In this document: positions 1,673-59,591 of the stretch, one piece after another | How positions within the stretch are numbered: position 1 is the stretch's first letter | Layout: every line of letters starts with the position of its first letter | From: Yuukianura sp. NJ FZ-2021 | Taxonomy: Eukaryota | NCBI GenBank assembly: GCA_046563655.1 | Contig: CM102290.1 | Span: forward strand, 13,206,001-13,270,000 | Length of the DNA stretch: 64,000 nucleotides | Direction: 5' to 3' | The notes under the pieces: generated by a model | The model's input: only the letters and a program-made list of their open reading frames with translations | Databases searched by the model: none | What the model was told of the DNA's origin: nothing | Made by a program: the position numbers and the translations under genes

Positions 1673-2244
1673 CGTGTAATTACGGTGTACTTAAGATTAA
1701 ATGATCATCAAGGTATCTTCATTAAGTTAATACCGGATTCATCCTATCACAACTTTAAGTTGTTAACCTGCATTTCAATTAATGTAATATCATGAAACAT
1801 TCAACCTTAATTGAAAAATAATTGCACTAAAATCAGTTGTATTGCATACAGCAACAGCAAGAAAAGATTTTTCCCACTGCTCACTGCATTATTAGAAGCA
1901 AATGTTACCAAAATTTATTCAAAATAGTACAAATGACAAAGTTAGAAATAACAGAATGCAAAAAGGAATCACGATTTGGTCTACATCAAGGTTCCATGGT
2001 AACCAGATCTTTTTGAAAGTTTTAGAAAACAATTAAGTAGGAACCTTGGTATAGAACACTGGGAAAGGCACATCTCGGTTTGATCATTTTTTTATGATGT
2101 AAAACGTAAGTACAACGTTTGCATAAATATGGAGGCTATGGTACAATGGCACCTAGTTTTTTAGCATTTTTAGTTAGCCTCATTCAAAATATAAGTATAG
2201 CTTTTTGTTGTTGTTGTTGTTGTTATTATTGCTTGAGAGGTTGA

Positions 2245-7030: not shown

Positions 7031-20645
<13,615 letters not shown>

Positions 20646-29512: not shown

Positions 29513-31125
29513 TCATACTAACAAGTTTCCACTATGTTTTTTCCCTGGCCACGCCTCCTTAGCATACTTCTTCCGCTTAGGCTCATCTACAAATTCTGAT
29601 GGTGGAGGTCTAGCAGCCGAAACTGTTGGAGGAGGTGGTGGGGCTTGTTCAATTTTCTTGATATCGTCAATTTCAGGAGCTGGATTCGGCAGTGACATGC
29701 CCAATTTTGTGGATAGATTTTGTAACGTAGTAAAGTATGGTGTATTAACTGAGGTTTCAACCTGGAAATCCTCATACAGACTAACTTTTGGAACCAAATG
29801 ATGCTTCACTGGTTGATGTGGTACGAGACCCAGACTTAGACGAGGACGCTACAAAAACGGAACAAGAAACTTTTATATTCGTAGTATTATATAAACTAAA
29901 ATAACAAACTAACAAAATATTGCGAATAAATAATAAGCAGACAAAGCTATGGGGAAAATAAACTTGAAGTTTGTAAGCAGGATGAAGGTGAAGAAGGAAT
30001 TGGATTTTGCGAGGAGTGAAAGCTTGGTTCAAAGGTAAGTGCTGCGTCGCCCTTCGTAGAATACGAACACCTAAAGCACATAGGTCAAAGTTACATAAAA
30101 CAATACCTTCTTTTCAGATGGAATCACAGTGCTTTGAACTAAGTTTCTGAATCTGCCAATCGTTGGATCAATGTCTTCAGGATTTATTACCTCATGCACG
30201 TCACTAAAACTCACGCTTAGCTTCTTCCGCTTCTTCTTCCCTCGATCGTCGTCAGTGATTCCGAGCATGGAGATGCGACGATTCTGGGCAGTGTTGTACT
30301 CCGTCAGATTCTGAAAATTTCAGAAGTATAGTTTCGGTTTCCAAACGCATATTCTCTTCACGAGGTTAAAAAAACATGTAAGTATGAAATCTTACATCCA
30401 GTTCAGTGTCAGCTTCTGGCAAGCCCAGAAGTGCTCCGTCGTTATCTGAAACTTGTCGCTCTAGTTCGTAAATAACAGGACGAGAAGGATTGACTGGACG
30501 CTGACGCAGGATGTACTGGCGAGTAGAAGCTCCAAAGTGAAAGCGGCAATCCATTTGAAGCTGCGTGGGTTTATTGGCTTCAAGTCTCAACGTCCCGATA
30601 AACGTTCCATGTGCTGAAATACAAAGTTTGAGTGTATTGGAGTCTTTACTTGCTTTCGTGAGCATGAAAGATTTTAACAACATACTGCTTCCAAGGTCAA
30701 TCAAAAACGCTCGATCCAAATGCTTGTGATACACGAGGGCGGCGTGAATCCGAGAACAGGATGCGTGGTCGATACAAATATCGTTTTGTTGAGGGTTACG
30801 TCCGAAAAGGTAGTGTTTCTTCTGATCAACCATCAGTTTCTAAACAAAGAAGCATGGTGTTAATCGACTAAAATGTTCAACTTAGGGTATTTGTAATAGT
30901 TTTGCCTTTTCAACTTAAATTCATCATTTCTTTTACCTGAATCAGTTTGTCTCCCTTCATGACGTCCAGATGATAACCAGACGGAGGTACTTCGGCCCTT
31001 GATGTTCAAGTTTACGATTATTCTTCATACAATTCATCCTCCTTAATTTATTTTCTTAAGTTTTATTATTACCAATCGGGAATCTCGTAGCCTGGACCTG
31101 GACTCGGTTGACTCGTAGATGACAT
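29513..31125 (-). CDS. PPP1R8: Nuclear inhibitor of protein phosphatase 1 (FHA domain)
   Basis: MSST...YEIPDW|AEVPPSGYHLDVMKGDKLIQ|KLMVDQK; FHA motifs FGRN, SRIH, STHGTF-like; NLTEYNTAQNRRI; EVINPEDIDPTIGRFRNLVQ; C-terminus KKYAKEAWPGKK. Confidence 0.93.
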
Positions 31126-32441: not shown

Positions 32442-35400
32442 TTAATAGGGATGGTGAAGGGGATGATGAATTTGCGTAAGAGGATGGCTTTGCGTCTTCT
32501 CTTGTACGCTGGTAGGTTGTGGGACGGTTCCATACGGCCATTGATAAACATACTGAGGATAAGCATATTCCGGTTGCAGTGTATACTGAGCAGGCGGTGG
32601 AAAAGCTGTATTCGGATACTGGAAAAACACAAAATGCAAACAAAAAGAAATCAGATTAGGAGCAATAATCCTACGAACGACGGTGGAATAAACGATAAAA
32701 AGCAAACACTATGCTATTTACCACATAGTTATGGGCAACTGGCTGCGATTGACTTGATTTTTGTTCTTCGATGGATTTCAATGCCACAGAAACTCCGGCC
32801 AGCATTCCCCTAACGAAGTCAATATCACCACGCCCCAGTGATGTATGAAGGTAATCTCGGTGACGCTGGTAAGTTTTCTCAGATCCAGACCCAGTCAACT
32901 CTCGTAAACCAAATGTTTTCAACGCCTCTTTAGTTACGCGTGTCCACTCTGTCTTAGAACAATAGAAATTGGACACTGGAGGCGGAGGAGAACGGCGGGT
33001 TGGTCTTGGTGGGGCGCTCCAAGGCTGCGAAAGAAGCTGCAATACATAACAAAATGGTATGGAGTTATGCTTGAATTTTATAAACTAATATCATTACATT
33101 TAGTTGTAGTATTTTAAAATTATCAATTAAGAGTAAATATTTAGAAAGGAAGCGATACCGGACGACGTTGTTGTGAGGTGACTGTGGCTGGCCTGTCGCG
33201 GATCGGAACTAAATTCGGGTTCGAAGTTTTTGTAACTTTGGCTGGAACTGGAGTTGGTTGTTGTGAGGATCGTTTAGGCGCGGACGTTGGTTGCTCTCGA
33301 GGCCTTGGAGCAAAGTTCTGATTCAACGGAAGGTAAATGGCTTTGCCATTTCCAGCACTACATGTGGGAAGTCCAAGGTCGTTGCGCAAAAGTCCGGTGA
33401 GCTGAAGAATGTGGAGTACTCTCATTGGAAGCCCATAGAGATCCGGCCCAAAAGCACTGAAGATGGCAAGCAAGGTTTGACCAGGAATGGACTTGAAATT
33501 CTCCCAAATAAACTCTACGTAACGAACTTTGATAGCATCGTCACTGAGTTTAAGTGTCTGGCGGCTATTTGACATGTATCTCTTCAAGAGGGCTTTGAAT
33601 AATTCAAACGGTATTACACAGTTTAGTGGACTCCATCCGTTTCTGGGCGGAATCTTCTGTTCTACTCTTGCCTCTTGGTTCAACGAAAGTTGGAAGAGAG
33701 ATGCACCGGTTTCCATCAAGATCTGACGAGATGCTTTGCCCAGGTCAATCTTGTTCCTTAAAGCCATGTCTCTTTTTCTGTCTATTTCTGGCTGGAGAAT
33801 ACGTCGCCAATTATCCACTTCACCTTTCGTGAGTTTCTTAACTTCGAAAATTCCAGCGGGAGATAGCCCATGGCGCCTGTTCTCGTTCTCAATGTGCATA
33901 TACACACCACGGTTCAAGACTTCTTTAGAAATACCACAACCCCTTCTGCGATACCTAAAAAATACAAATGGAACATTTTTAATTTAACCGTATGATTCAC
34001 ATTTACAGGGATTTGAACAAAATTCTAAACCTTCGAGTTTTTTGAACTACAATTCGTGATAGCAGCCTAACCTAAAAAAAATAATGGAGTTTTTCTACTA
34101 ACAATAAGCGATCAGCTAAAAACCAACGTTTTTGCAGAAATGTCAGAGCGCCCCAAGGTAAATAGAATACTCCTAGGTACGGTTTATTTACAATGAAAAA
34201 GAATTTCGGCAATTTTTTTTCCCCTCGACGACGTCATTTCTACCGTGAGTTTTTTAATGTTCAACTTGTGTTTTCTCTGTTTCCGTGTTAACGCCTTCAT
34301 TGAAAACTTTTTCCTACAACAGAAATCCTAAAAAACTCACTGTATTCCCCACGATGACGTCACGGATTTTAATTTACTTTTTTGTTGCCATTGGATACCG
34401 CCCCTAGCTGAGAGCGCCCCAACTACATTCGAGATTGTTTAAACAATATAATTATTAACAAAGTTTAACTTGTATCAAATTAATTTAAGAAATGACATTT
34501 AAAAAAACTGAAAAGTCAATTATGAACGTTTTCTGTTGTTTTTTTAAATCCATCAAGCTAAAATCATTTTAAATATTTTAATTTTTTTTTAGTTAATGCC
34601 TTCTTTTATTGTTCAATTCAAACAATTTGCAATGTGCGTTGGCGTACGTTCGAGTGTTTTTTTTCCTGATCGCTCAGTAGAAAAACTCCACCCTTTCTCA
34701 GATTAGGTTTACATACCACTGAATGAAAAGATCCATTCCATTTCCAGTTGCATTGTTGCTGTTGGCGCCGGAGAATTGGATTTGTATTGCTCGCAAGACC
34801 TCTTCGAAGTGAAAGTGGGAAAAATCCAGTTCTCGTTCCAGCCTGAAAAGTGAAAGAATTGGATTAAAGCAGCCAGTAAGTTACCCTGCACGGGTACTTA
34901 AATATTAGGAATAGGCATTGAAACAATGAGAATTTACCTAGTGTAATCTGCATGACACACAGCAGGTTCCTTTGTTGAGGATTCTTTTTGGATTTGACTG
35001 CCCAATGAAACTTGCGGCGGGGCGGTTTGACTGCCCAATGAAACTTGCTGCGGAGGGACTTGACTGCCCAATGAAACTTGCGGCGGGGCGGTTTGACTGC
35101 CCAATGAAGCTTGCTGCGGGGCCACAGCCATCCTTGTTCCAGTATTTATGAGAAGATTTTGTGCAGGCTCGGAGTTGGGCACAGTTTGAGACCAGTTGAT
35201 GAGCATTTGTTTTGAACAGAAGAGGCTAAGAATTCTTCCAGGATAGAATTTGAGATCCGTTCCAAAGGCAGAAATAACGGCCATGAGAAATTCTTCGTCC
35301 GTAGATGCAACGTTATGCATATACTCTATGTACCACTTCTTCAAAATGGCCGTTCGATGAGTCTGTGTAACAACACTTCCAACGACACGAGTCAAAAGCA

Positions 35401-36487
35401 TCGTTTTTTCGAACAGTTCGAACGCCATTGAGAGATTTAGTGGACTCCACTGAGCGTTCCAAATTAAGTCGGTCTGCAAAACACAATTAACGAACAGTAT
35501 GAGTTTTCAACTGTTTCTTTTGTATAAGCTAATATTTCAACTGCTACGATCATAGTATTAATTATAATATATGAATATAACCTATATGATAAGTCTTACG
35601 TTCATAATCGCCGCCCTCGGAAGTGGTTGAGAAAACTTGGGAGTCAATATAGACTGGAGTTCAGTTTTCCCGTCAATCAAGAATGCCAACATTTCTGTCC
35701 AGTGCCGCCTAGGATGAGAAAAAGTTGTTTTCACTTCGTTTGGATCGGCAGTACGCTGTCTAATAACATTATCCATATCCTCGTTTAGTTTGTTTCTGAC
35801 AGCCCATCTCTCATAGGCAGCTTTAGCAACAGCATCCGTCGCAGTGTCTTCTTTTACTTTGGGAAGACATCGGTTAAAGATTCGTTGGTTCTCCTCCATA
35901 TGACGAAAGTAGTTCAGCATTATAGTCTTCTGCTGAACTGATCCCACACGTGATGGAGATTGAACACCCTTTACTTTGTACTGGGAAACGAGCTCTACAC
36001 AGATCCACTCCACATCCATAACTTTAGGCAATGGATTGCCGGGGAACTTCTGTGCATGGGAAGCCATGATTTCTTCTAGAGTCCTCTCATTACGTTTTTC
36101 ATTTTGGTTTTGGATCTGACTTTCATTGTCGTCTTCCATCAAATCAACAACTTCTGGAGGAGGTTTCTCAGGAACGGGAAGCTCAACCACTGAAAGAGGT
36201 GGAGACACTGCGGGACCATAGTCATACCAACTGGTATCATGGTGATATGTCGGCGTAACATATCCAGAACTGTCCTCGAGATTAATAGTCTGAACAAATT
36301 CGTCGTCGTTGCCATTTTCTTCAAGATCAATAACTTCCACAACCTCCAGTACCGTAACAGGTGAATCAGGGCCTGGAGAAATTCCGTCGGGAACCTCACT
36401 TCTAATGGGTGGTCGTGGTTCTACCCGCGGTAGTCTGATGGAAGGTGGTGGCGGTGGCATCATTGTGGATTCTCCACGGGTGGTCAT
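32442..36487 (-). CDS. Orphan protein of ~950 aa: N-terminal SIM cluster, two copies of an unrecognised ~230-aa domain, Tyr/Pro/His-rich tail; 6 coding exons
   Basis: Frame-consistent GT-AG joins: 36487-35600, 35473-34938, ~34842-34717, ~33954-33159, ~33036-32722, ~32618-32442. The internal duplication is visible (WSPLN...FELF...SAFG.DL). Confidence 0.8.
34993..35120. repeat. 33-bp coding minisatellite (~4 units) encoding SLGSQ(TA/VP)P(P/Q)QV
   Basis: tttgactgcccaatgaaacttgcggcggggcgg repeated in tandem with alternating variants. Confidence 0.9.
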
Positions 36488-38030
36488 GATTTACTTCTGA
36501 TAGTTATCTGACGTGTCTAAAACAGAAAACTAATTAAAAAGTTGTCCAAGGAAATAATCGTTAAAACCGTTTACGCCAGGTTCAGAGATCTACACACACA
36601 CTAACTAGGTTTTGAAGATTTTACGAGACTGGGGTTAAGCGCTCAACGTAACGTGAGTGCCTTCAACAAGTAAACCGAACAATTAGTTAAGTTACTAGTT
36701 AATACTTTAAATTGACTAAAGCTGAAATAGTATACCTTCCTGTCTAATGAATAATCGGCATTTCACCCAAGGTTTTAGTCCCGGCTCCCGTGTTCCAACT
36801 GAAGAGTTGTTTTGTCTGTAAACATTTAAAAAATCAACTTACTTTTAGAAACAGGTGAAACTCAAAGAAGCAAGTTAAATTCAAAAGTTGAAGTTAAAGA
36901 TTACCTTGATAATGATAAGAAAGTTATTTTACCTTCTTTACATTTGGAATGTTGAACTTATTTAATTCGAATTGCATTGCAAGTTGCAATTTGCAACTTG
37001 TTATTGGGTGCTGTGCTGTGCTAAGAAAACAGCTCGAGTGTAAGTTGAGATAGTCGTGCAACTTACCAATGTAACCGGACTCTTTTTTCTAATAGTTAAC
37101 GGAAGGATATGATTGGACGATGCAACCATAAGGCTTGTGAACTTATATTTTCGACTGAATAACATCAATGGAAAGTTATTCCAGCCGCAGCCACCGAATT
37201 CTACATCATAATTGCCGGTGGCTACATTGTTTGAAAACAATTGCGTGTATGTATCGTTATTTCAACCCATGATAATACGTATATATTCCAATTCAAAGAG
37301 TACCATTATAATTAACTTACTCTATGCGATGACGACTTTCCGTTTGTTTTTTTTTATACTGATGTTACTTTGTGAATAACTCCTGAGACACAGTACAAGC
37401 TAAAAGCGGCTGGTTGCCTTGGGTCCATAACTGAATTAGTATACTGTATGATTATGGTTACATCGAAGGTTGGTCGAATTTACTGTAACAATAAAATGGA
37501 AGGAGGTTGGTTACAACAATGTAGTTCCGGTTGGCTTCAACGAAATAGAATGTCTTTGCTACATGTGAGTGTGCTCTTCCCGCGTTTTTGTAGAAATAAC
37601 GCGGCATCGTTGTCAATGTTAGGTATGTTTCTAAAAAAATTATAAACAATAATTGTTGTAATTATTGTACAAAATCTCTAAAATAATCTAACTGCGTTAA
37701 TCCAAATCAAGTTCAATCAACAACTTTTAGTCTTTATTGGATAAAACTATACAAACTACAAAATATACTTTGGAGTTCATTCATCGACAAACCTTTTTAT
37801 GTCCGAACAGACATTTAAAAAATGAGCTTCATACATCATGCTTCAACACGCCATGCAGTATTTAAATGTAAGAAAGTACTTGTTGATCCAACGTAAGCCA
37901 AAGTACTAGAACCTGATCATGATCATAACTACTTAATACTAACTATCTTGTAGGTGAACAGCCATGCTAAGTGAAACCAGGCGTTATTAACAAAAATAGA
38001 AAATGAACATCTCCGAGGAAGTAGGCAGTC

Positions 38031-41000
38031 TCAGAGGAAATACAACTGGTGAGCCAAATTTTCATGAATGTACTGGCCCTCCTCACGGTAAGTCGTTCCA
38101 GTCAAATAGGATAGCTTATGTGCATATTGGCAGACGAAAGGCACAGACACGGTTCCCGTCCAGTTATAGTAGAGATGGCAGAATTTGTGAGACAGAATCT
38201 GCAAACGATCTGGCGGGAACTTGTCTTCTACTCTGAGTACATTGTAAGTCGTCGGACTCACAGTTTGTCCCCTCCGTGGTTGTTGCGATATAAGGAAAAA
38301 GTCAAATCTGAAATCAAACAGGAACCCTTGCAGTTAGTACAATTTTGGATTTCTATTCTATTAACCGTTAATTAAGTATAATACCTTTCTGGCATTGTGA
38401 TGACACTGTCGACACATGTTCCCGGTTGTGGATTGTCAACTTCTCCTCTGAACTTTCGCATCAATCGAGCATTTCCCTTCTTCGTAACAATGATGAAATT
38501 AAATTTGAGTATTTTGTTGGATCCACTGTAGACTCCCTGGATACTTTCCTGTAAAACCAATATGGTAATGAGTGGAACTGTCAACTTACGAACAAATGTG
38601 AACATTCAAAATGTTTTAAACTTACCAAGAGTTGTCTCACTTCATGGTCGTTTACATACTGAAAAATTTAAAAAAAAAAGTAAGGGAATGGGTTTACACC
38701 AGCAATGCATGTGCATCAACAGAAAATACAAGCGGAAATGCATAGGCAGTAGTTTAATAAGCATTTACAAAGTTTTATTTTTAGAAATGCTTACGGTGAG
38801 GTCTCCTTCTCCAACACCATCACGGTACATGAACACACGATCCGGCAGCTCGTTATTCTTTTGTTGAAAAGCCATGAGACATTCTGTTAAAAAAAAAATA
38901 TTTACAACTCTCTGACCGTGGTTGAGTAATATTTTTAAGCTAATAAGCTCTGTTACTTGTGAAATCTTTGCACATATTATCCGATAAGTTATCAGCATTG
39001 CAGTGTGTAGACACGGTGGAGAAAAACTGCGAAAAAGAATTGTTGGTCGTTGCAACCATAGCTCCAATTGATATCTTGGCCTTCCCTTTGCCACTGTGGT
39101 GAACGTCAAAACCAACGACCATGGTGTGCTGTAAAACCAAAATGGCACAAATTAGAACCAGAATGAATGGCAAGGCAGTACAAGTACTCCGCAGTATTAA
39201 TCCATAAAGATTACACTCTGTTTGAATGGATTCACAGCAACCCATGGTGAACCTCCAAGCTTAGCATTCATTTGAATCACGACCTTGGTGCAAACGCTTT
39301 TCAACCCTCCTGTTTATTAAAAAAAACAGATGAATCAAATATTTCATTTTACAAATAGTATACTAGTGGGAAATTCGTAGTTGTTTACCTTGCTTCTGCT
39401 CTGCGAGATGTTTCGACTGGAAGCACTGTGACCGCACTATTGATAACAAGAGTCAGTCACTTTCTAGGCTTGATAATCTCACTACACTATGAAATTTTAT
39501 GATTATGAATAATTTGAAATACCTCCGAACTCGATGTTGCACCTCTTCTTGATAGCAGCATACGCGTCTTGGGAATTGTTCGTCAAAATGACGAATATCA
39601 TTTGCAAGCCCTTGATCTTATCCACTGCTTCGTTGATTCCATTGACGTAAGCTCTGCTCGCATCTCTTCTGGTGTCTGGACATGCGATGCTGAAAACATT
39701 ATTTACACGATATTGAGATTACACGATTTTGTGAGAAGTGATACAGAGAATGAATTGACGAATGCTTCTTACACTTCTGGGTTTGGGTTTATAGGAAAAT
39801 TTAAGCCATTAGCAACAAATTTCAGCGCATCCAGAAGTCTGGATACTGAGCTTCGATTCTCAGTCCCTACGATAATGGCCCAGTTCTTCATTTCAATGGA
39901 ATTGTGCATCCGCATTTTTCCTGCATACAAAACGATAAATTATGATACTAAAAAGTGAAAGACACAGTAAAACGTTTTTACTAAAAACTGAAGACATTGA
40001 CTCACCTTTGAAGTTATTAGTCCAATCTGCATTCGGTTCAACTTGAAACTTCTCTTCTGCATCGTTCCTGATGTTACGCATGATCATGTTTTCTGGCGGT
40101 AGAATTCGACCTGGAACGTCAACCATGTTGCTATTTACCGACATGCCCCACTCTTTGAGATTTCCTTGAACCTGTTTTGGAGTATAAATTAACGTTTGAG
40201 TAACGTTGTCATATTGAAGTAGAAAAATACTGTGTGCTAGAGTGCAAGTATTTTCTTGTGATGGATACCTGAAGATTCGATGTCAGTCTGCCCATAAACG
40301 ACATGAGTTGGTCGTGGCGCCTCCTGGGTTCCAATGAAGTGACACTGTGAATGTCACGCATTAAGTTGAAGTCACTCTTTTGATACTCGGAGAGTCCAGT
40401 AATGTTACAAAGCTCTGGGATAAGAAGGATATTCGAGCTCATTCCACGATGACGATCTCGTCGGCTCGGTTTACTGATCAGCAGTGGCTGATTCATATCC
40501 CGAATCCGAAATCCTGGATACTTTTCGTTGTAATAATCCAAGAAAGACTTTTCTTGCTTCTGGTCCCCACGACCTAGTTCGAATGTTGATCCAGGGGTTT
40601 TGTCCCAGTCAATGTCATGAATCTTGTAGGTCTTTCGGTTGTACTTGGTGATAACGACGTTCCCTACAATCTCACTCTGAATTCGTGGTTTATTAAACCC
40701 ACAAGATTGTATCACTTCCAAGCAATTTTCCAAGCGAAGGACTTTGGACCTGAGGTCAACATTGACCAATAATCCTCCATCGTAACAACGCAAGGCGACT
40801 GAGTATCCAGGCCAAATCTCCAACCTGGAGTTGGCCAGCTGCTTTGTGTTTTCCCGTTCAAAAAAATGTCGACCAATCTCATCTAATCCCATTAGTCTCA
40901 AACACGTTCTGACGATGATTCCGTAAACTTGGAGGTATTGTGAATCTCCAGGCTCAACTGTACCAACTTGCTTGATCGTAATTTTGACCTGTTGACCGGT

Positions 41001-41774
41001 ACTGCTCATGGAGTATTTCTCAGAATCCTAAAAATTAATTAAACTTCAGAAAAAAAGAAATTTAAACATAGGTATACTAAAAAGAGGATTTCTCACCAAA
41101 TTAGCAAGAAAAGAATACAGATTGCTGCCATCAAAGATGTATCCGTGCAGATCACTTTGATGAGCACGGACTAAAGTACGTTTGTCATGCGTCTTTTCTG
41201 GTTCGGGGTCGAAGTCAACACGGTAATTGTAAAGGGTCAAGTGGTCTGCAGTTGTTTTGACCTTGAAGTAGTTGGCCAATAGTTGAACATGTTCTCCGGA
41301 TCGACCTAACTTGCTTTCGACATTATCCGGTTTAGTTTTGACGTTGTCATAACTTCGGATCTCTTGCTCTTTCAGTTCCTGCCTCTCCTTTTCCATTTTT
41401 GCCCGGAATTCGTCTGGAGGTAAACGAGGACGTCGTCCGCGACCACCACCGTTGCCTCCACGAGATCCGCGGTCACCGCCTCCACGAATGTGAGGATCGC
41501 TTCCTCTACTGCTATGACCACCTTCACCTCTGCCATAACTGTCATCTCGTCTTTGGCGCTTCGAATCTAAAGGACAGAATGAGTTAAATTATTAGCAAAT
41601 CAAGAGTTGCCAGGGTCAGTAATTAGAATTTTTGTCAGTGACCTCGTTAACGGTCAACAATTTACCTTCATCTCTGCTCTCGTCCCGCTGTCTACGACGA
41701 TCACCTCCGCCATTTCCTCCGCCGTATCCCCCTTGATAACCGGCTCCACCACGACCCCGTGGTGTGTAAGACAT
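38031..41774 (-). CDS. piwi: PIWI-clade Argonaute A (Piwi/Aub-like) with a variant catalytic tetrad D-N-D-H
   Basis: RG-rich N-terminus (MSYTPRGRGGAG...), LLANYF, PAZ (YNRKTYKIHDIDW...LLIPELC), MID (YAAIKK, SQC, QMNAKLGG), PIWI domain (GFDV, YRDGVGEG, PGT, HLYYNW, CQYAHKL) and C-terminal LYFL. All exons join in frame. Confidence 0.95.
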
Positions 41775-42040
41775 TGAGTGTAATTCTGCCGCTATTCAAT
41801 CTTATGTGTTTTGGAGCAACTTTGTTTTTATCTTCTGTAAAGAAGCAACACTGACAATTTGAGGCTAGCCAAACGCATACTGAGACACCACAAACTAAAC
41901 ACAACAAATCCAAACAAAAAATCTTGCAGGAAAGGATAGGAGAAATATTTTTTGACCGTTAGCGCCTGCCGGCTTCTCTCCTCCCTCTCCAGAACCTCCC
42001 TATCTAAAACCACACGACATTTGAACATTTCGAATCGTAA

Positions 42041-42420
42041 TACCGCAAATCTCCAAATAGTGGCCCAGTTCCAAATAATGTCTCCCTCATTAGCGCGCAG
42101 TGTTGCTGGACGCTTAAACGTCCAGTGGTTTATTTCCAAATAATGCAAACCCGCAGGCAAAGCTCCACCTCTTTGAATTCATCCATTTCGTCCATTTCTT
42201 CCACTGGATATCAGCCGTGGATTCAATGCCGAAAAAGTGGATATTCACTATCCAGCAACACGGTTAATACCCCATACCCCTCACATAATAGTACCCCGCC
42301 ATATTCCTCCTTGATAGACCCTATACCACATAAACCTGAAGGCCGACGGTAGAATTATTAAAATCCGGTTCCCCGGATAGTAAATAATACTCCGGAGGTA
42401 CTATTCGGAAATCTACGGTA
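42041..42420. mobile_element. Family-B Tc2-like MITE just 5' of the PIWI-A coding start
   Basis: taccgcaaatctccaaatagtg ... gtactattcggaaatctacggta. Confidence 0.65.
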
Positions 42421-44689
42421 AGATAGCATCTAACCGAAGAAATCATAAACGGCTTGGAAGGAAAGCCAATAAGGTTGAACGAACTGATTTAATTAACTAG
42501 GCTTTTGCTTTTGCAGCAGTAATCATAGTTTTTACATGAACGTCTTCAAATTATAAAAGTCTTAAAGAAAATGCATAGTGTGTGGTTTAATCAGTGGTGA
42601 TTTTGCATTAGAAATGATGAAATGAATGAAAAACGAGTAGAATTGTTAGAGAAGCAAAAATGTGGAGTCTTCAACTTAGAAAATGTAGTGTCAGCAAAAC
42701 CACAGTTAGCAACAACGCGTGTAATCTAATTTACTCGTTTCAAATTTTTATAGCCGTAAACAATTTTTACTGCAAATGGTCACCCCATCTATTTCCTTAT
42801 TACTTTTTGTTCTCCGAAATTTTCTACCAGTACCGCCAACGATTGTATTAATTGTAGTAACCATAAGGAATTAAAATTATTTTTAGCTAATTTTAATTAT
42901 TCTTTTGAAAAGTAATGTCTTTTATTACTTTTAAGTTTCAGTTTTACACGCTTCAGTTTTTTCAGTATTTAGTACGAGGTCATGATAATTTTAGGCGTCC
43001 TTCAACCGGCCCTGTTGCCGAAGGGCTTGTTCAAAGGGCTCCCAAAATAGATCCCTACCCGGTCAAATTACAACGACAATGTACGACTTAAATGTTGGTC
43101 CAACGGACAACGAAAAGCATAAAAGCAAACCCATGCAGTAATGCCAAGTGGAAAATGTACTTTATGAATAAGTTTCTTTGAAAAACTGAAATTGGATACC
43201 ACGGATGCCCATGACAAACAAAATAGTCTGTCTCGAAGAAAAACTAATGGGAAAGGTCAACCAGGTCAACCCGATAGCCATTTCGTTAAGTTTGTTATTG
43301 GATGTCGTAAAATGAACCTTAAAAACTGAAATGTCAGTTCATACGGAGATTTGTTTGTCAGAAATGCCCGCTGGGCAGTTCCAATCCAACTTCAGGTCCT
43401 TGTCTCATAAATTCAGCGTTTAATCGACCTTGCTTCAAGTTGCAGCAAAAGTAAAAAGTGGGTTGGATAAAATCAGCAGGGCCGGAACAACTAAAAACTC
43501 GGCCGAGTAAATTTTCCCGAAATTAGAACATTAGCATTGACATTGATTAATTACCATGGATTTCGTTAGAGTTGAATAATTAAAATTAAAATTATTAAAA
43601 ATTAAAGTTAAAACGTATATAAATCCGTCACATTGAAATTGTATTTTCTTTATTGTGAAATCGATTACAATTTCGTAAATTCCGTAAATCTGTTTGCGTT
43701 TTTTTTTTTTTTGAAGTTAGAGGTACTAAGACGGACGTGACGGCCCTGTTCTGATCGTTTTGGACGATGGAATATCTTCTTACATAGATTACCACTATGT
43801 CCTGTTTATTTCGTAGAAATAATCTTTGAAAAAGTGCTGATGCTGTACATTTGAGGGGCTTTAACATTTCCAAAATTCGAACCCAACCGCCTTCAGCACG
43901 TTGGTTCAAGGACACACACTTGCTTCAGGGTTGCTTCAAAACTGTAAAAGAAACACAGTAGAAACCCCGGGTTGGTTTGGCTTTGGAACTAAGGACCAAT
44001 GGGACGCTTAATTTTTTTTCACATTTCAAAACGCATGAACAATTCGCTTTAAATTTGTTTCAATTTTTTCTATGATAGCATGTAGCTACCATGGGGTTCA
44101 TGAATCGCTGAATGTTCATCAATGCTAGCAAAAATTTAGATTTTCCTTTACTCAGATCACTAATAGTTCGGGGGTGGATTGACTACAAAGTACGATGTAC
44201 TAATTGCCACCCTAACCGAAGAATAAGGCGGGTTTAGTGCACAGAAAATAGTTTTGACCCCCTAGGTTCTATAAAACCCGGATTTTTAGTCTAACTAATG
44301 TGACAAAGATGCAGAACAAAGAAGTCACTATAGTACTTATAGTACTACATATAGTACTTGTAGTACTATAACGTCTCTCCATGCGTTTAGCACTACTTGA
44401 AACTTTAGATATTTTTGAACTTCAACAAGTTGGACTTAAGGAGCTAAATTTAAGTAGAAAACATGAAAAAATGCTGTGAAGAAATAGACTTTTAGGAACA
44501 GAAGGGCCTCTTTTTCTTTGTTCAACTCATTCAGCTTAAAAGTTTAGAGCTCAAATTTTGTCAAAAGTATAAAAATTTTATTTTAAAAAGCCTTACTTTG
44601 TTTTTCTAAAAACCACTTCCATAACCTTTGTAGTTTTCCATTGAAATTGACCCCAATCTATTGTCTCTTCGTTCCTTCCCGTTCTATTG

Positions 44690-44910
44690 TTAATTTTTCG
44701 GTTCTCTCGACCATAAAATTTACTTCGACGCTCTCTGTTCAGTCAGCCTTTGTTCTTCAAGTCTTCTCTATTTGCTCCACTCCGTTTGTGGTTAATTGCG
44801 ATTTCAAGTCCATCTGCTAACTAACAAAGTCAACAAAATAACTGCTGGGTACACAGAAATTTCAACCGAGATTCAAACCGATTAATCGACTCCTGTCATC
44901 CTTCAAAAAG
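44690..44910 (+). promoter_or_regulatory. Putative TSS and non-coding first exon of PIWI-B
   Basis: Pyrimidine-rich stretch with an Inr-like TCAGTC (~44738), ending in an AAG|GTAATT donor at ~44910. An acceptor TTTTAG sits just upstream of the ATG at 46393. Inferred, not demonstrated. Confidence 0.4.
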
Positions 44911-44974
44911 GTAATTGATTATCAAATTATAAGCATTTTTGTGGTATTGGCAGCATACAATAGTTCATATAAGC

Positions 44975-45212
44975 AGCGTTGTCAAAAATATGTGCTAAAA
45001 GCCTCGAAATATTGATAAAAAATAGTTTTTTTTTTAAATCGCCCAATATTTCATAATTTAACATTAATGGCATATGCAAAAAATATTTACTAAATCTAAA
45101 AAAAACTTGGACAAAAAACTTTGTTTATTAACATTGTTAATAAACAAATATTTCCGCAATTTGTTAATTTAGCATTAGGAGCATAGAGACTAAATATTTT
45201 TGACATCGCTCT
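44975..45212. mobile_element. MITE-like inverted-repeat element upstream of the PIWI-B ATG
   Basis: gcgttgtcaaaaatat / atatttttgacatcgc. Confidence 0.55.
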
Positions 45213-45321
45213 TCATAAGAGATGCGATGAGACCGGGAGTCACTCCGAATCTGCGATCAGTTCTTGGCGCTCACTTTGAAGAGAAAGTGGTTCTCTTTAT
45301 TTTCGGTAATTGGCAAGTTGA

Positions 45322-45548
45322 AATTCCGGTTGAAGTAAGCGATCCGTAGTTTAATAGCTACACTGTGTAGTAACTTAGGTTGACCCTTTAGCTTGGTATT
45401 TTTTAGTAACATGTTTTATGTAACATTTGATATAAGTAGCTACATGCAATACCAGCGTAGCCACCTACCTTGTGGCTACATATTGGTTGCCAGCGGCTAC
45501 ACTGGTTGACTACAAGGGTTATCGTTAATACTTACTTCAACCGAAATT
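45322..45548. mobile_element. MITE, family F copy
   Basis: aattccggttgaagtaag / cttacttcaaccgaaatt, matching the TIR at 19442-19574. Confidence 0.7.
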
Positions 45549-46392
45549 CTATTCTGCAAAATCTAATGTTGTTATTTTCTTTTTTCGAATACCATACACA
45601 ACACAGTATACATAATACATAACTGCATAATATCTATGCAAGTATGTATATTATAAAAGGTTTGAAGCATAACCTTACCATAAACTAAGCTCAAACGTTT
45701 TCCAGAATTTATCAACCGCAACATTACGAAGGCTGACGCGGAATACAAGAGTTAGAAACACAACTTATTTTAATTGGAATATTTATTAAAGTACATAACT
45801 TATTTATTAATTAAATTATGAAATACTTATTTATTAAAGTAGAGCAGTGTTTATATTAATTATAAGTGCAAAGTGCAATACTGTTGAGCACCACCTACGA
45901 TTTTAGTGATATGTAATTAATTTTCCACACTGATGTCAATCTGAAAATTTTTTTCTGGACTCTACAAATTTGTAACTTCTATACAATCTTAAACATAGGT
46001 ACATTTTACCGCACACTAAACATTTTAGTGTGCGGCAACCATAATATTACTACTTTACCGCGGTGAAAGGAAATTTACATTACAGTTACCCTACTGCTAA
46101 CTACTTTGGAATCCAAAGTTTTGAAAAATCCTGCTGTATCCAAACTTTGTATACAACAAAAAAAATTACGGAAAATTCCGTAATTACTTTGTTCTTTGAA
46201 GAGTCCAGACAAATTTTTTTCCAAATTACGATTCAGCATAGTATAGAAACTAATTAGCACCGAAATCGGGGAAATGGTGACCATAGACAAATATTTCTTC
46301 GCGGAGTCCGAAATTTTTTTGAACTTCCTTACTATTAGTAGCATTCATGAAATTAAAATTGGTTGTTTATTATTGATTTTAGACACTTCGCT

Positions 46393-49300
46393 ATGTCAAA
46401 CGCTTGGGCTGGACGAGGAGCACGAGGTGGAGGTGGGCCGAGAGGCGGTCGTGGTGGGGCTAATGGTGGTGGACCACGGCCACCACAGCCGAACAATGGC
46501 GGCGGACCTTATCCACCATTGAGGCCACAGCATCACTCTCAGGGTAATCTGTCCGATTACTTTTATGCATTAAGGCTATGTGCGGTTACGGTTCAATCTC
46601 TGAGCAGAGTGTGAGATAAAAAAATGAAGGCAAATATAATTAGTCCGAACTTAACGGAAATTCCAGGCATGGCTTCCGTAACCCAAAACATGGCCAACAT
46701 GAATGTTTCTCAACAACAACGACAGCAACAACCACAACGCGGAGGTGGTGGACAGCATGAAGGTATGTTTTGGAACTTGATTACTAAAAATAGTCCCGTC
46801 GTGAGAATTTTGAATGTTTCAAATTGCCCCAATCGAACGATGTGTTCCATTGTTGCCGATTTTATCAAGCAAATTGAGCCCATATGCCTTAAATCTAGTG
46901 TTCCCAGTTTCGGTCACTTTTCAGAATTTTTGTTTGAAAAGAACGATTACACAGTAGGCGCATGCGCCACGTCTAAAACCTGGCCACGCCCCCAAAATTT
47001 TCAAATTTACCAGGCCTCCTATAATGTCAAAATAAGTTTCGGTCATTTCGTTAGACTGAAAAGTGCTGGTTCGAAATGTCCAAAAAACTTTTTCAGAGGC
47101 GGACGATTAAAATGTTCAAAAAACGTTTTCGGGCGGACGATTGAAATGTCCAGTGACTGAAACTGGGAACATTGTCTGAATCTCTTATGTTTAGGAATGA
47201 GTAGCCGCGGTCGTCCTCACCGTGAACAAGGTGCAAGCGGGTATTCTGATGGGAACCGTGACCAAGGATCCAGTAGTCGCTCTGGCGGGAATGGACGGAG
47301 TCGTGGTGCAGATCAAGGAAGTGAAGGACCGAAGAAGAGAGGAAGGCGGGAAAACAATTTTGACCTCGTGTTGTCACGTAATGCCGTTTGTGGACCCGAT
47401 CGGCCGTCGAAACGAGGTGCTGGTGGAGAGAAGATCCAACTCGTTGCGAATTTGTTCCCGTTGAACAAAAAGCCCGACTGGACACTCTACAACTACCGAG
47501 TTGACTTTAAAAATGCGCGGGAAGGAGGGGAAGAAGAACAACGTACGTTTGTCAAGAAAGGACTACTGGCTGAACAGAAGAACTACTTGGGCATGCACAT
47601 CTTTGATGGATCAAACTTGTACACGATAGCAAGACTTACACCGGAGGTAAATTCATCGTTAACTAATCAATTTCTTAATTTGACCAATATCTTATTATAT
47701 TTCAGCCGTTAATCTTGACCTCTCTTCGAAGAAACGATAATACTCCGTTTGAACTTACGATTACTCTGGTTGGTCAACTTCACCCGACGGATGTAGCCTA
47801 TCTCCAATTCTTCAACATCATCATGAGAAAATGTCTGTCACTGCTCAAGTTTACTCTGATTGGTCGACATTTCTATGATCCTGAAGCCGAGATCAATTTA
47901 GCCCAAATTGGCTATGTCCTCATTCCTGGATTCATTACGAACATTCGACAATACGAAGAACGGCTCATGATGTGTGTTGAAATTACACACAAAGTACTCC
48001 GCGAAGGGTCATGTTTACAACTGAGGCGACAATGTCGGAATAACAACGAGTACCGAGACATGTTGGTAGGATCAGTCGTCCTCACCCGTTACAACAACAG
48101 AACGTACCGTGTAGATGACATTGCCTGGGACCAGAATCCAAGCACAACGTTTGAAAGCAATGGAACCCGCGTTTCTTTGGCTGAATACTACAACCGAAAG
48201 TATCAGCTGAGAGTTAATGATATGTCACAACCACTCTTAGTTTCACGTCCGAGAGCCCGGGATCTTCATCGAGGAGATAATCAAACGATTCTTCTCATTC
48301 CCGAATTTTGCCATCCTACTGGAATCCCTGATCAGGACAGACAAAACTATACCAAGATGAATGCTCTTTCAACCTACTTGCAGCAAGATCCAAGTAGACG
48401 AGCAGCGTCAACAATTGGATTCATGCGGCGCCTGCGTACTTCGGATACTGTAAGTTTATTAAACGAAAGCTACTTTATGGCTTGACCTTGTCTGTCTGTC
48501 TGTCTGGCCGGCCGTACATTGATGATTCTTTGTTTGAAATTTGATTTTAACAGACACGCACTCACCTTACTAGCTGGGAGCTTGGGTTTGAAGGGATGGA
48601 TTTGGTCAATATCCAAGAAGGAAGAGTGTTGCCACGGGAAACCCTCTTTTTCAGAGATCCGAAGACTCCGTTCAAGGTTCCGGCTAATGCTGATTGGACG
48701 TCCGAATTAAGAACCGGTACGACTTGTTGTATTTGGAGTTAATTGTTGTAAATAAGATTTTAATGACGCATTCTTTCGTTCACTAGGTTCTGCAAATAAG
48801 ATGGCAGCAGCCCAGGAGTTCCGTAACTGGGTTCTCATTACACCAGCACAAGTGAACACCAATGACCTATTGAGCATCATGATCAAAGTGGGAAATGGCA
48901 TGGGGTTCCCGGTTTCTAACCCGCTTCATATGTAAGTCAATTTTTCCGTTTGACAATGATTCGATTAGTCCATATTTTGTACAATGATGTTCAAATGTTT
49001 TAGAGAGAGGATTCAAGACACAAGAGTCCATGGCTATTTGACGGCTCTGGAGTCCGTCAAGAACAATTTCAAAACGGCCAACCTCATTTTCACGGTCATG
49101 CCGCAAGCAAAGGACACGAGTGCGATTTACAACGAGGTCAAGAAACGCTGCCTCACTGTTTACGGGAGTAAGTCAATTTGAACTCCTACAAACAAAAATT
49201 AGTCGCTTTTCACATGTAGTAACATGAGTTTTAACTTTTCAGTTCACAATCAGTGCTTTCAAGCCAAACACCTCAGCCCGAACAACAGCGGAAGGTTGAT

Positions 49301-50735
49301 GTCCGTCGTCACGAAACTTCTGGTTCAAATTAACGCTAAGCTGGGCGGTGAACCGTGGAAGATAAACTTGAACTTTAAAGTTCCAACGGTATGTATAAGA
49401 TCTTTACAGTAGAACCTCACATTAGCAACACGCTATGACTGGCTGGGTTGATGTGGTACCGTACGGCTCCAATTTCTATTTCATGTGAGATATTGGAAGC
49501 GATCTGTTTTGTTTAAAATCCGTCCAAAAAATTAAGTTTTACGGTATTCCACCGTAGGGGGAGATGGATCTATTGCTTAGGTATGCAAAGAGCCAGAGTA
49601 AAAAAAAAAAAAATTTTAAAAGTTCGCGCGCCGAAAAATCTGGTTTTTCAAACTTTGTTGTTTACCATTTTTGTGTGAGGGATTTTTTAATCAATTTTTT
49701 TTTACTCTGGTTCTTTAGGAACCTAATAAGTAAAAGTTCCGCCTTGAGAGGTTCTACTGTATCAGTGGTCTTCGTTTAATTTCAACATGTGATTGAAACT
49801 TACGTTTTGCAGATGATCGTGGGCTTTGATGTGTATCATCCTGGCAAAGGTAGAGACGCTGGACGGAAAAGCTACGGAGCAATCGTCGCAACGACGAATA
49901 GATGTGCCTCAAAATTCTATTCCACCGTGACCCCACACGAAGGAATGCAGGAGATTTCCAATGCACTGGAGTTGGATATTCTCAGTAAGAAATTCTTAAG
50001 TTACTGTCCAAATTCTTAAAATGCTTAAAAAATTAATCCAAAACATGTTTTTTAAAATTAGAATGCGTGAAGGCGTTTCAGAAAGCAAATAGTGGCGTGG
50101 TGCCGCAATACATAATCCTGTACAGAGATGGCGTCGGGGAAGGGCAACTGGGCTATGTGTACGAAACGGAAGTCGGACAAATTCAGGTATTTTGACCTCA
50201 GTCAATTGCTGAATTGAGAAAGTTTTCACTTTTTCACTTTTAACTTTGTTTAACTTTTACTTTTCCTTGCTAATAGAGGGCGTTGAAGAGCTACTATGAC
50301 ACATTGGGAAAGATGGCGCCAAAACTACTCTTCGTTGTCGTAACGAAAAAAGGAAACGCGCGAATCATGACCCGACATAACCAGAACTACGACAATCCTC
50401 CGCCTGGGACAATCGTTGACAACACAATCACACTTCCAGAAAGATACGACTTTTTTCTGGTGGCTCAACAAGCCCGTAGGGGACAAACTGTCAGTCCAAC
50501 GACTTTCAACGTTCTCCATGACGACGTCAAAATCACTCCAGCCGAGCTTCAGGCCCTAACTTTTCAACAGTGCCACATGTACTTCAATTGGTCAGGAACG
50601 GTGGCCGTTCCAGCAGTTTGTCAGTATGCACACAAATTGGCGTACTTGACTGGAACAGGGCTGGACACTGCGGCTGGAGCTGGACAAGCTCCTCTTGTCC
50701 AGGAACATCTCCTGTCCTATCTCTACTTTCTCTAA
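46393..50735 (+). CDS. piwi: PIWI-clade Argonaute B (Piwi/Aub-like) with an intact DEDH tetrad
   Basis: N-terminus MSNAWAGRGARGGGGPRGGRGG, LVANLF, PAZ (YNNRTYRVDDIAW...LLIPEFC), MID (YNEVKK, NQC, QINAKLGG), PIWI domain (GFDV, QEIS, YRDGVGEG, HMYFNW, CQYAHKL) and C-terminal LYFL. All exons join in frame. Confidence 0.95.
46896..47174. mobile_element. hAT-like MITE in a PIWI-B intron
   Basis: TIR tagtgttcccagtttcggtcac / gtgactgaaactgggaacattg. The flanking 8-mers cttaaatc and tctgaatc resemble a decayed 8-bp target duplication. Confidence 0.7.
48460..48515 (-). repeat. Family E fragment in a PIWI-B intron
   Basis: cgaaagctactttatgg...tgtctgtctgtctgtc is the reverse complement of the 11570-11612 and 31980-32025 motif. 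Confidence 0.6.
49405..49761. mobile_element. Family-D pogo-like MITE in a PIWI-B intron, carrying a nested inverted-repeat element (~49577-49726)
   Basis: Outer TIR tacagtagaacctc / gaggttctactgta. Inner TIR ttagg..caaagagccagagtaaaa / ttttactctggttcttt...cctaa, which is absent from the 10285 copy. Confidence 0.75.
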
Positions 50736-58300: not shown

Positions 58301-59591
58301 GTTTCAAATAGACGAAGATGTGTTAGGTTTGATTAATCATGTGATTTAATTCCGACATCTTTTGATTTGTTTCTAGGTTGAGAAGGAATTGAAAGAAATC
58401 TGTTCGGATATCTTGAATGTTTTGGACCTGCATCTCATCGCAAACGCCAGTACTGGAGAATCCAAAGTTTTCTACTATAAAATGTAAGGGGAAATTTTGG
58501 AAAGTTTACTTGGATACTTGGCAGTATATTTTGTGTAAGGAAGTATTTAACAAAATATTTTGGGTTTGAACAGGAAAGGGGATTATCACCGTTATTTGGC
58601 TGAGTTTGCAACTGCTGCCGATAGAAAGGAGGCTGCCGAGCATTCTTTGGTAGCATACAAGTCGGCAAGTGGTGAGTCACTTTAAGAAAGTACTTGAAAT
58701 ACTTGAGATTGAGACTACGCATGTGCCGTGTTGTTGGGCATTTCGGTGACCTTGAACGCGGAAAGTGGTTGAAGCTAAAAGAGGATGATATGATAAAGTG
58801 TCGTAATATGATTTTTAGACATTGCAATGGCTGAGCTGGCTCCGACCCATCCAATCCGTCTCGGTCTGGCTTTGAACTTCTCAGTGTTCTATTATGAGAT
58901 CTTGAACTCTGCGGAACGAGCATGTCGCCTAGCGAAAGCTGCTTTTGATGATGCTATCGCAGAGTTGGATACATTGTCTGAGGAGAGCTACAAGGACTCA
59001 ACCCTCATCATGCAGCTTCTCCGCGACAATTTAACTCTTTGGACCTCGGATATGCAGGGAGAAGGCACAGAAGGTAAACTTTTATGAACATGTCTACAGA
59101 TCCTCAAGTGCCTTTGTTAAGGCATGGCAAATGTTAAGTTTGTGAAGTGTCCATGGTAACATTAAGTCACATGGGACGTGACGTCAAACAGTAATGTCAT
59201 TGGGAATGAGTGTTGGTTAATCGGGAGTTTGAGTTATAAATAATTTATAGAATTTATAAAAGTAATAGAATTTCTGGCGGGAAGCGACGTCACTTTTCGA
59301 ACTTTCGAGATTTGCGGAATTTGTACACACGACTTAATTATAAGTTCCATAGATTAAAAAAAGTTTGGGGAGTGACGTCACAGATTTGAAATGGACCAAT
59401 TACGAAAGCTGTAACAAAATGGGTTGCAGGGGGTGGGAAGAGGCGGGACTTGATAAATTCTATAAATTCCATAAATTCTATAAATTATTTATAACGCAAA
59501 GTGCCTAACGTTGATTTTGGTTTTGGATTTAGGAGGGGAGAGTGAGCAGAAGGAGCCGCTTCAAGATGTGGATGACCAGGATGTCTCATAA
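52371..59591 (+). CDS. 14-3-3epsilon: 14-3-3 protein epsilon, 6 coding exons, ~5.7-kb first intron
   Basis: [31 protein letters not shown]...[22 protein letters not shown]...[21 protein letters not shown]...[15 protein letters not shown]. Confidence 0.97.
59228..59500. mobile_element. Foldback/MITE-like element in the last 14-3-3 epsilon intron
   Basis: Perfect 25-bp inverted repeat gttataaataatttatagaatttat / ataaattctataaattatttataac. Confidence 0.7.

Follow-up and report, generated by a model that had tools for sequence, protein, structure and literature searches.

Do two PIWI genes and the gene beside them make up a small-RNA silencing module, with one PIWI that cuts its targets, one that does not and a protein cofactor next door? 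This question is raised by a locus at 32,442 to 50,735 within a stretch of 64,000 nucleotides from Yuukianura sp. NJ FZ-2021 (assembly GCA_046563655.1, contig CM102290.1, positions 13,206,001 to 13,270,000 of the forward strand), which is called the window below and in which all positions are counted. A preliminary description of the sequence had placed here two full-length PIWI genes, named PIWI-A and PIWI-B in this text, and a supposed orphan gene rich in SUMO-interacting motifs (SIMs), named the neighbour gene, and it had suggested that the latter serves a non-slicing PIWI as a cofactor. The overall explanation that we now lean towards, if only slightly, is that of three real genes, namely a slicing-impaired PIWI-A, an ordinary PIWI-B and a putative SUMO-reading scaffold that lies next door by chance.

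Results

Catalytic centres of PIWI-A and PIWI-B

The catalytic tetrads were read from a MAFFT alignment of the two PIWI models with 12 of the 13 homologues found (P0003, a fragment of 524 aa, was omitted), and the codons were checked in the DNA. The expected pair of one DEDH copy (PIWI-B) and one DNDH copy (PIWI-A) was recovered in this way. At the column of the glutamate finger, 12 of the 13 covering rows have E and only PIWI-A has N (P0006 is gapped there), and the Asn codon of PIWI-A, AAC, is directly preceded by an Asp codon, GAT (38993-38991). Because two bases must differ to turn Glu into Asn, one sequencing error is unlikely to explain the substitution. In the alignment of the catalytic exon of PIWI-B to Siwi 665-714, the Asp and Glu of PIWI-B coincide with D670 and E708 of Siwi, both of which are named among the residues of the Siwi tetrad (PMC7015924). 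The catalytic exon of PIWI-A taken alone (57 aa) had no PDB match at E ≤ 1, and the tetrad of PIWI-A was therefore read from the full-length alignment. Judged by sequence, PIWI-B carries the DEDH/DEDD tetrad of a slicer and PIWI-A does not, since Asn replaces its Glu.

Constraint was compared with nine reference PIWIs (P0003, P0006, P0008 and P0009 were omitted). At the 76 columns that are invariant in these nine proteins, PIWI-A and PIWI-B depart five times each, and at 126 near-invariant columns they depart 21 and 20 times, respectively. Four of the five departures of PIWI-A lie within catalytic motifs and the remaining one is an edge artefact; the departures of PIWI-B at invariant columns fall in the L1/PAZ region. 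The four changes in PIWI-A are E to N at the finger, Q to D in RDGVGxGQ after the second Asp, and A to F and A to S flanking the catalytic His. As we read the alignment, PIWI-A retains the YAHKL, DVHH and KISIGA motifs, that is, the catalytic His together with the His and Ser by which the finger is held; the pocket for the 5′ end of the guide is retained too. PIWI-A is intact and not degenerate overall, with a conservation about that of PIWI-B. As its departures cluster at the active site and its overall conservation equals that of PIWI-B, the catalytic centre of PIWI-A has been remodelled while the remaining protein stayed constrained.

What this means for cleavage can be estimated from other Argonautes. 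The first three tetrad positions were classed as universal across 366 Argonautes (bioRxiv 10.1101/2024.10.10.617571), and in Siwi the E708V mutation is described as reducing rather than abolishing slicing, the His being the essential residue (PMC7015924). We hold it probable, on a modest estimate, that slicing by PIWI-A is strongly impaired. We think it rather unlikely that PIWI-A still slices, perhaps in a weakened form, with the missing carboxylate supplied by the Asp that precedes the Asn or by the newly gained one in RDGVGEGD; the two copies would then be specialised paralogues, set apart by tissue, stage or partner, e.g. as ping-pong partners or as a somatic and a germline copy. The retained residues fit such a slicer, as both Asp and the His are present, as are the two residues that stabilise the finger in its plugged-in state, the His at D+3 and the Ser (by our reading of the alignment), and so do the merely reduced activity of Siwi E708V and an overall constraint no lower than that of PIWI-B; but the Glu belongs to the positions classed as universal in the survey above and is E in 12 of the 13 PIWIs aligned here, and the concentration of four of the five departures in catalytic motifs looks like relaxation or re-purposing of the site. 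If slicing by PIWI-A is impaired, as we favour, the protein would bind piRNA guides, cleave targets poorly or not at all and act as an RNA-guided binding platform. PIWI-B, by its sequence, is a PIWI of the ordinary slicer type, with its DEDH tetrad and an N-terminus rich in Arg and Gly (RG-rich). A PIWI in which the Glu finger and a few neighbouring residues have changed and the His has been kept is a natural intermediate for studying how slicing is lost or tuned.

Gene models and origin of the two PIWIs

Exons were found from stop-to-stop open reading frames (ORFs) and Pfam, and then with a custom protein-to-genome spliced aligner and three full-length PIWI references (P0001, P0002 and P0004); the search for PIWI homologues had given 13 proteins from scattered phyla at no more than 39% identity, and an exon of PIWI-B looked up in the Atlas matched nothing but generic PAZ clusters. 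Two complete PIWI-clade genes are indeed present, as Pfam domains, matches to solved structures and spliced alignments to the three references without internal stops all indicate, and their head-to-head order was confirmed, with PIWI-A on the minus and PIWI-B on the plus strand and 4.6 kb between the putative ATGs at 41774 and 46393. For PIWI-A the three reference runs concur on most of 12 exons from 41362 to 38034 and differ locally (at 41097/41068-41027/41004, 40006/39974-39920/39885 and 39531-39364), and the P0001 run was adopted as the exon model. For PIWI-B all three runs concur on 9 exons, from 47646 on to the stop at 50735. Spliced alignment gave 12-13 coding exons in PIWI-A and 9-10 in PIWI-B, with no internal stop in either gene, and the introns are 59-424 nt long with ordinary GT-AG ends. 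An RG-rich first exon joins in frame in both PIWIs, by a weak exon-1 donor in PIWI-A, and the 5′ ends of both genes, at the two ATGs just named, are tentative. Extra 5′ exons that the aligner had proposed for PIWI-B (46667-46747 and 46958-47062) were rejected as artefacts of non-homologous N-termini, as was a 41477/41362 "intron" in PIWI-A that has the same source; they were dropped for poor splice scores or for their position within a single open frame.

The Pfam domains found were ArgoL1 (E 1.2e-9) and PAZ (E 9.8e-29) at 40209-41027 (-) in PIWI-A, and ArgoL1 and PAZ at 47679-48485 (PAZ E 4.3e-28) and Piwi at 50277-50735 (E 2.2e-35) in PIWI-B; ArgoN falls slightly below the Pfam cut-off. The top solved structures for the PAZ exon of PIWI-A were Piwi-like 1, Siwi, Drosophila Piwi and Piwi-like 2 (E 7e-49 to 1e-47). 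Both predicted proteins have the N, L1, PAZ, MID and PIWI architecture of PIWI-clade Argonautes. Basic clusters stand in both N-termini (KRQRR in PIWI-A, KKRGRR in PIWI-B) and do not discriminate between the copies as to nuclear localisation.

PIWI-A and PIWI-B share 41.7% identity over 768 aligned columns, and P0001, the best database match (812 aa), is 42.1% identical to PIWI-A and 40.3% to PIWI-B, that is, about as distant from each as they are from one another. A separate observation is that the last exons of PIWI-A (38210-38309) and PIWI-B (50442-50541) are 73% identical at the nucleotide level across 100 nt (inverted repeat I1), which contrasts with the overall protein identity. A maximum-likelihood tree was made of 11 rows (P0003, P0006, P0008 and P0009 were omitted, and the rows included no AGO outgroup, Ago3, Drosophila Piwi or Aub). 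In it PIWI-A, PIWI-B and P0001 are united in a clade (support 100/99), which joins a moth protein of the Siwi-like kind and P0004 in a wider branch that is likewise supported at 100/99; the internal order is unsettled in both. The Siwi-like branch is separate from a PIWIL2-plus-springtail branch and from the branch of vertebrate PIWIL1/3. The branch lengths of PIWI-A (0.88), PIWI-B (1.03) and P0001 (0.90) are similar. These results fit a pair of old paralogues of the Siwi/Aub/Piwi type that would have arisen in the wider lineage of the host, and the Piwi and Aub of flies are themselves reported to have arisen by a lineage-specific duplication (PMC4824172). The idea that a Piwi/Aub ancestor was split here into a slicing and a non-slicing copy survives in its first half, as a lineage-restricted duplication is consistent with the 11-row tree, but "non-slicing" is unsupported, for PIWI-A keeps the His and the activity of Siwi E708V was only reduced.

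The gene downstream of PIWI-A

The neighbour gene lies on the same strand as PIWI-A, as first described, and its ATG at 36487 is 1543 nt beyond the stop codon of PIWI-A (38031-38033). The interval 32442-36490 (-) holds five consecutive open frames, none of them with a Pfam match, and the favoured model joins five exons (Table 1) at splice sites that were scored with a matrix trained on the introns of the PIWI genes. The predicted protein contains two copies of a helical domain, which are 36% identical over 86 aa (BLASTP, E 3e-11) and which go back to an ancient duplication; a third copy was not found in the window. AlphaFold2 (AF2) modelling of the domain unit from 22 sequences gave nine helices with pLDDT 84.7 and pTM 0.82, and a model made from the two window copies only (pLDDT 50) was discarded in favour of it. 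Fold searches with this domain gave no convincing match, with a best E of 1.3 by Foldseek in the PDB and of 0.39 in BFVD, which is viral, a best Z of 5.1 in VIA wide, which is within noise for helical models, a best E of 1.5 in a PDB profile search and no usable match in the Atlas; histone-fold-like rows in VIA wide (Z about 4) were rejected as being at noise level for helical models, and Pfam gave no consistent family among the 22 members. The modelled domain matches no known fold in these searches, by which a new fold is not proven.

A profile of the two domain copies was searched against 1.84 billion representative proteins (hmmsearch) and found 23 homologues at E ≤ 1e-3, including 10 at E ≤ 1e-10 (best 2.9e-16); the lowest-ranked matches (P0032 and P0034-P0036) align, in several stretches, to the N-terminal part of the profile only and are possibly spurious. 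Twenty of the family matches were looked up, and all are unnamed singletons (15 from JGI, 3 from Logan and 2 from ENA). When exon 1 was compared with a word-indexed database at near lengths only, none of 460 candidates scored, and with the family alignment the same tool found only 2 proteins. The family falls into "long" forms, which resemble exons 1 and 2, and "short" forms, which resemble exon 3. Five loci (L001-L005), all from one metagenome and on contigs of 1.5-12 kb, were retrieved with the short-form alignment, and one of them, L003, has the same architecture as the window. With 23 homologues and such a contig the label of orphan cannot stand, and the neighbour is, as far as homology tells, a member of a conserved animal protein family without a name. 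The domains of the five loci are only 22-39% identical to one another, and the loci come either from one animal with an expanded family or from several related animals.

Quite probably the neighbour is one gene rather than two tandem paralogues. The join of exons 1 and 2 is confirmed by the long-form homologues P0020, P0021 and P0037 (445-517 aa), which read through the position of the first intron uninterrupted. The window and L001-L005 share the place and phase (YAG/GTAY, phase 2) of the intron that precedes the conserved "RY" of exon 3, and in the window as well as in L003 the ORF of domain 1 ends at a GTAA donor of phase 2. L003 itself has three consecutive ORFs on the same strand with gaps of 220 and 70 nt (SIM-plus-domain-1, domain-2 and exon-4-like), in the module order of the window, and, to judge from the matching sizes of their longest contigs, three more pairs of family ORFs apparently lie together on one contig each. 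It is because of this conserved intron position and phase, the module order of L003, the apparent same-contig pairs and an open frame of 903 aa that the single-gene model was preferred. The doubtful alternative is that the interval contains two tandem paralogues, a long form (exons 1-2) that stops at 34934-34936 and a short form (exons 3-5) with a small 5′ exon of its own. The stop of the exon-2 ORF does fall right at the proposed donor, short-form genes are apparently alone in L001 and L004, with no long-form domain 1.5-4.5 kb upstream, and the joining intron of 983 nt is long compared with the PIWI introns; but the conserved part of exon 3 already begins 5′ of the first ATG in this exon, where there is a phase-2 acceptor with a high score (9.8), the donor phase of exon 2 is matched in L003, and the joined model stays open throughout. 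Taken over all five loci, four are apparently short forms without an upstream long-form domain.

For the single gene that we prefer, the N-terminal ~135 residues have a high content of Pro, Glu, Val, Ser and Asp, and exon 1 was searched with a SIM regular expression, a [VIL]-rich core of four residues beside at least three acidic residues. Exon 1 has three such sites against a shuffle mean of 0.35, and three were reached in 6 of 2000 shuffles. They make up two clusters, of which the second is conserved as [VI][VI]E[IL]..P.PPP..[IV][DE]L plus acidic residues in five of the eight long-form sequences aligned. These sequences share only 24-30% overall identity with exon 1 of the window, and the conservation of cluster 2 against this background is a stronger argument for a functional motif than the shuffles are. 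The "poly-SIM" character that had been ascribed to the gene is right as far as acidic-flanked SIM-like motifs above shuffle expectation go, but there are two clusters rather than many. The long-form protein P0026 (Logan, 458 aa) has no SIM-like motifs at its N-terminus, but "LVDLTEDVDVD" stands close to its C-terminal end, which suggests that a SIM-like motif may recur at differing positions across the family.

Further downstream, the conserved module of exon 4 was matched by tblastn 350-500 nt past the domain in L001-L004, and the alignment finds it in all five loci; the C-terminus of the neighbour is a low-complexity tail rich in Pro, Tyr and Gln. The protein could work as a multivalent SUMO-reading scaffold, with tandem SIMs that would bind SUMOylated partners and with twin helical domains and an exon-4 module that may dock other proteins. 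Whether or not it is related to piRNAs, a family that conserves SIM-like motifs and has a helical domain modelled with confidence merits description.

Adjacency of the neighbour gene to the PIWI pair

The sole link between the neighbour and the PIWIs is chromosomal position. A poly(A) signal lies 295 nt past the stop of PIWI-A, with ~1.2 kb remaining to the ATG of the neighbour, and the neighbour therefore probably has its own promoter; its place beside PIWI-A would most likely be coincidental. In a synteny check by tblastn, the PIWI-A and PIWI-B models were found in none of the five related contigs (1.5-12 kb), of which only L003 has the orthologous architecture, with 424 nt upstream; at such lengths this absence has little weight. 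The suggested cofactor role of the neighbour is unsupported, as adjacency is all that speaks for it and the gene belongs to a conserved family.

The preliminary description had seen in this arrangement a candidate module in which PIWI-A is a nuclear non-slicing PIWI and co-transcriptional silencer, and the SIM-bearing neighbour is its lineage-specific cofactor that bridges to SUMOylated chromatin effectors; we regard this as very unlikely. It would agree with the common strand of the two genes and their distance of 1.5 kb, with the remodelled active site of PIWI-A and with the conserved SIM-like motifs of the neighbour, and it has a precedent in Drosophila, where a tetrad-defective Piwi is reported to work via Panoramix (Panx), the effector link needs SUMO and SIMs (PMC7015924, PMC8490990), and Piwi and Aub themselves came from a lineage-specific duplication (PMC4824172). 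Adjacency, however, is the only evidence for the module at this locus. The neighbour family has several paralogous forms, PIWI genes were absent from all five related contigs, though these are short, and an identity of 25-43% across organisms is not that of a fast-evolving orphan. Mouse MIWI2 is nuclear and keeps DEDH, and the tetrad state therefore does not predict nuclear function; the basic clusters in the N-termini of both PIWIs do not point to one copy as the nuclear one either.

Even more improbable is the wider idea that a protostome lineage re-invented the solution of Drosophila, in that one copy of the Aub/Siwi type gave up slicing and became a binding platform with the neighbour as its adaptor. 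If it were true, an adaptor with tandem SIMs and a twin helical domain, from a family not recognised so far, would couple a target-bound PIWI to SUMOylated chromatin or to RNA-decay machinery. Nuclear non-slicing PIWI function is known mainly from Drosophila Piwi and mouse MIWI2, whose cofactors are mutually unrelated, and each independent case would reveal the necessary parts of the solution.

Other features of the window

The GC content of the window is 33-45%, and the window is animal DNA. The flanking genes NIPP1 (PPP1R8) and 14-3-3 epsilon, which had been named beforehand, are both borne out by matches of their exons to solved structures; for the FHA exon on the left, the sole PDB match at E ≤ 1e-5 was NIPP1 (2jpe, E 5.7e-31). 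A start of the 14-3-3 gene at ~52.4 kb, as was first given (region 52366-59087, +), would imply an intron of more than 5 kb, in contrast with the short introns of the PIWI genes. Eight ORFs from the intergenic stretches and the 4.6-kb spacer between the PIWIs had no Pfam family, and the same stretches and spacer had no notable repeats and no Rfam match.

The sole Rfam match in the window is a mir-67 precursor at 17773-17853 (+), with 54.7 bits (E 1e-9), above the Rfam gathering score; mir-67 is a protostome miRNA family, and the match points to a protostome host. Hemopexin repeats stand on two exons at 19420-20645 (+) (E 3.5e-13 and 3.2e-11), which are probably the C-terminal part of a matrix-metalloproteinase-like gene, and a BSD-domain exon lies at 23498-23848 (+) (E 1e-11). 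A PAXIP1_C (PA1 family) match at 61054-61389 (-) is below threshold, with 24.1 bits against a cut-off of 27. Two long open frames at 2226-3761 (-), of 192 and 294 aa, are rich in Ser and Pro and have no Pfam family, and they may be exons of some gene.

Table 1 Coordinates of the features in the window
Feature	Position	Strand	Evidence
NIPP1 (PPP1R8) FHA-domain exon, left flank	30366..30839	-	Pfam FHA E 3.5e-14
Neighbour gene, favoured 5-exon model, 903 aa	32442..36487	-	Single terminal stop, splice-site scores, homologue continuity
Neighbour exons	36487-35600, 35473-34938, 33954-33159, 33036-32722, 32618-32442 (stop included)	-	Intron phases 0, 2, 0, 0
SIM-like cluster 1, VLEVVEVIDLEENGNDDE, aa 46-63	36299..36352	-	Regular expression and shuffles; aligns with "EFIELDSD" in P0020 and P0037
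SIM-like cluster 2, bipartite, SVVELPVPEKPPPEVVDLMEDDNES, aa 99-123	36119..36193	-	Conserved in long forms
Helical domain copy 1, long-form type	35192..35449	-	Closest P0020 43%, P0021 38%
33-nt tandem repeat, 3.9 copies, in exon 2	34993..35122	-	TRF; codes for PPQ(Q/V)SLGSQ repeats in the linker that follows domain copy 1
Helical domain copy 2, short-form type	33378..33635	-	Closest P0015 38%; modelled unit 33953-33348
Conserved downstream module, exon 4 (W...FGL..LT..GY.E.Y.RH...F.KGMLAG.S..LKS.EE)	32722..33036	-	tblastn, alignment; no Pfam family
PIWI-A (D-N-D-H)	38031..41774	-	Spliced alignment, Pfam, PDB matches
PIWI-A coding exons 1-7	41774-41696 (tentative), 41566-41097, 41027-40269, 40171-40006, 39920-39773, 39689-39523, 39436-39389	-	
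PIWI-A coding exons 8-13	39306-39215, 39128-38957, 38883-38795, 38658-38626, 38548-38385, 38307-38034; stop 38033-38031	-	
PIWI-A tetrad	D39107, N38990, D38821, H38120	-	MAFFT, codon check
Asn codon (AAC) at glutamate-finger position of PIWI-A	38988..38990	-	MAFFT column, codon read
PIWI-B (D-E-D-H)	46393..50735	+	Spliced alignments, Pfam
PIWI-B exons 1-5	46393-46543 (RG-rich, tentative join), 47195-47646, 47706-48449, 48554-48728, 48808-48931	+	
PIWI-B exons 6-10	49004-49167, 49243-49388, 49813-49984, 50062-50186, 50277-50735 (stop included)	+	
PIWI-B tetrad	D49828, E49951, D50127, H50631	+	MAFFT, codon check
14-3-3 epsilon exons, right flank	58024..59087	+	Pfam 14-3-3 on two exons; top PDB matches are 14-3-3 epsilon

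Discussion

The most solid new facts from this locus are a constrained PIWI paralogue that departs from invariant columns within the catalytic motifs and keeps the His, and an unnamed, conserved protein family with conserved SIM-like motifs and a twin helical domain for which no known match was found. The explanation built on them, an impaired PIWI-A, an ordinary PIWI-B and a SUMO-reading scaffold placed beside them by chance, has several points to answer. Loss of the Glu finger is by itself no proof of lost slicing, as the reduced activity kept by Siwi E708V illustrates (PMC7015924), and in PIWI-A both Asp and the His are still present, with a further Asp adjoining the Asn. The SUMO binding of the neighbour is a prediction from a SIM consensus. 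In the gene models, the score of the donor at 33158 is low (2.6), and the 5′ ends of the genes and the joins of neighbour exons 2-3 and 3-4 are predictions from splice-site logic. Chance adjacency and a functional link are also not distinguishable from position.

Among the known systems, PIWI-B resembles the Siwi/Aubergine-type slicers in its DEDH tetrad, its RG-rich N-terminus and its N, L1, PAZ and PIWI domains, and slicing is predicted for it; its identity to the Siwi-like reference is only 36-37%. The likeness of the neighbour to Panoramix, within SFiNX-PICTS with Su(var)2-10, is conceptual only, that of a lineage-restricted adaptor of a non-slicing PIWI for which SUMO-SIM contacts recruit heterochromatin effectors, Su(var)2-10-dependent SUMOylation and SIMs being described as recruiting those of Drosophila Piwi (PMC8490990). 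A relation to Panoramix in sequence or fold was not found, although no direct comparison with the Panx sequence was made; the neighbour has SIM-like motifs and a twin helical domain of its own and no Pfam family on any exon. SIM-bearing chromatin adaptors such as ATF7IP/MCAF1, RNF4 and PIAS have a hydrophobic [VI][VI]DL core followed by an acidic/serine run, in tandem. The neighbour is like them in having the tandem hydrophobic core and acidic/serine run, e.g. EVVDLMEDDNES, but it has none of their Pfam domains and its helical domain matches no solved structure.

The closest comparison for PIWI-A is Drosophila Piwi, a nuclear protein with a DVDK tetrad that is described as no slicer and as silencing through Panoramix (PMC7015924), and this precedent of Piwi and Panoramix is an analogy and not evidence for the present locus. 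The tree places PIWI-A together with PIWI-B and P0001, the sole insect row (Siwi-like) lies outside this clade, and Drosophila Piwi is not among the rows. Both PIWI-A and Drosophila Piwi are paralogues from a Piwi/Aub-type duplication, and both have lost the glutamate finger (PMC7015924, PMC4824172). In Drosophila Piwi, however, the catalytic His (K818) and the finger-holding His (K617) and Ser (A625) are reported as lost as well (PMC7015924), whereas PIWI-A, as the alignment reads, keeps all three residues and has changed the Glu together with Q to D, A to F and A to S nearby.

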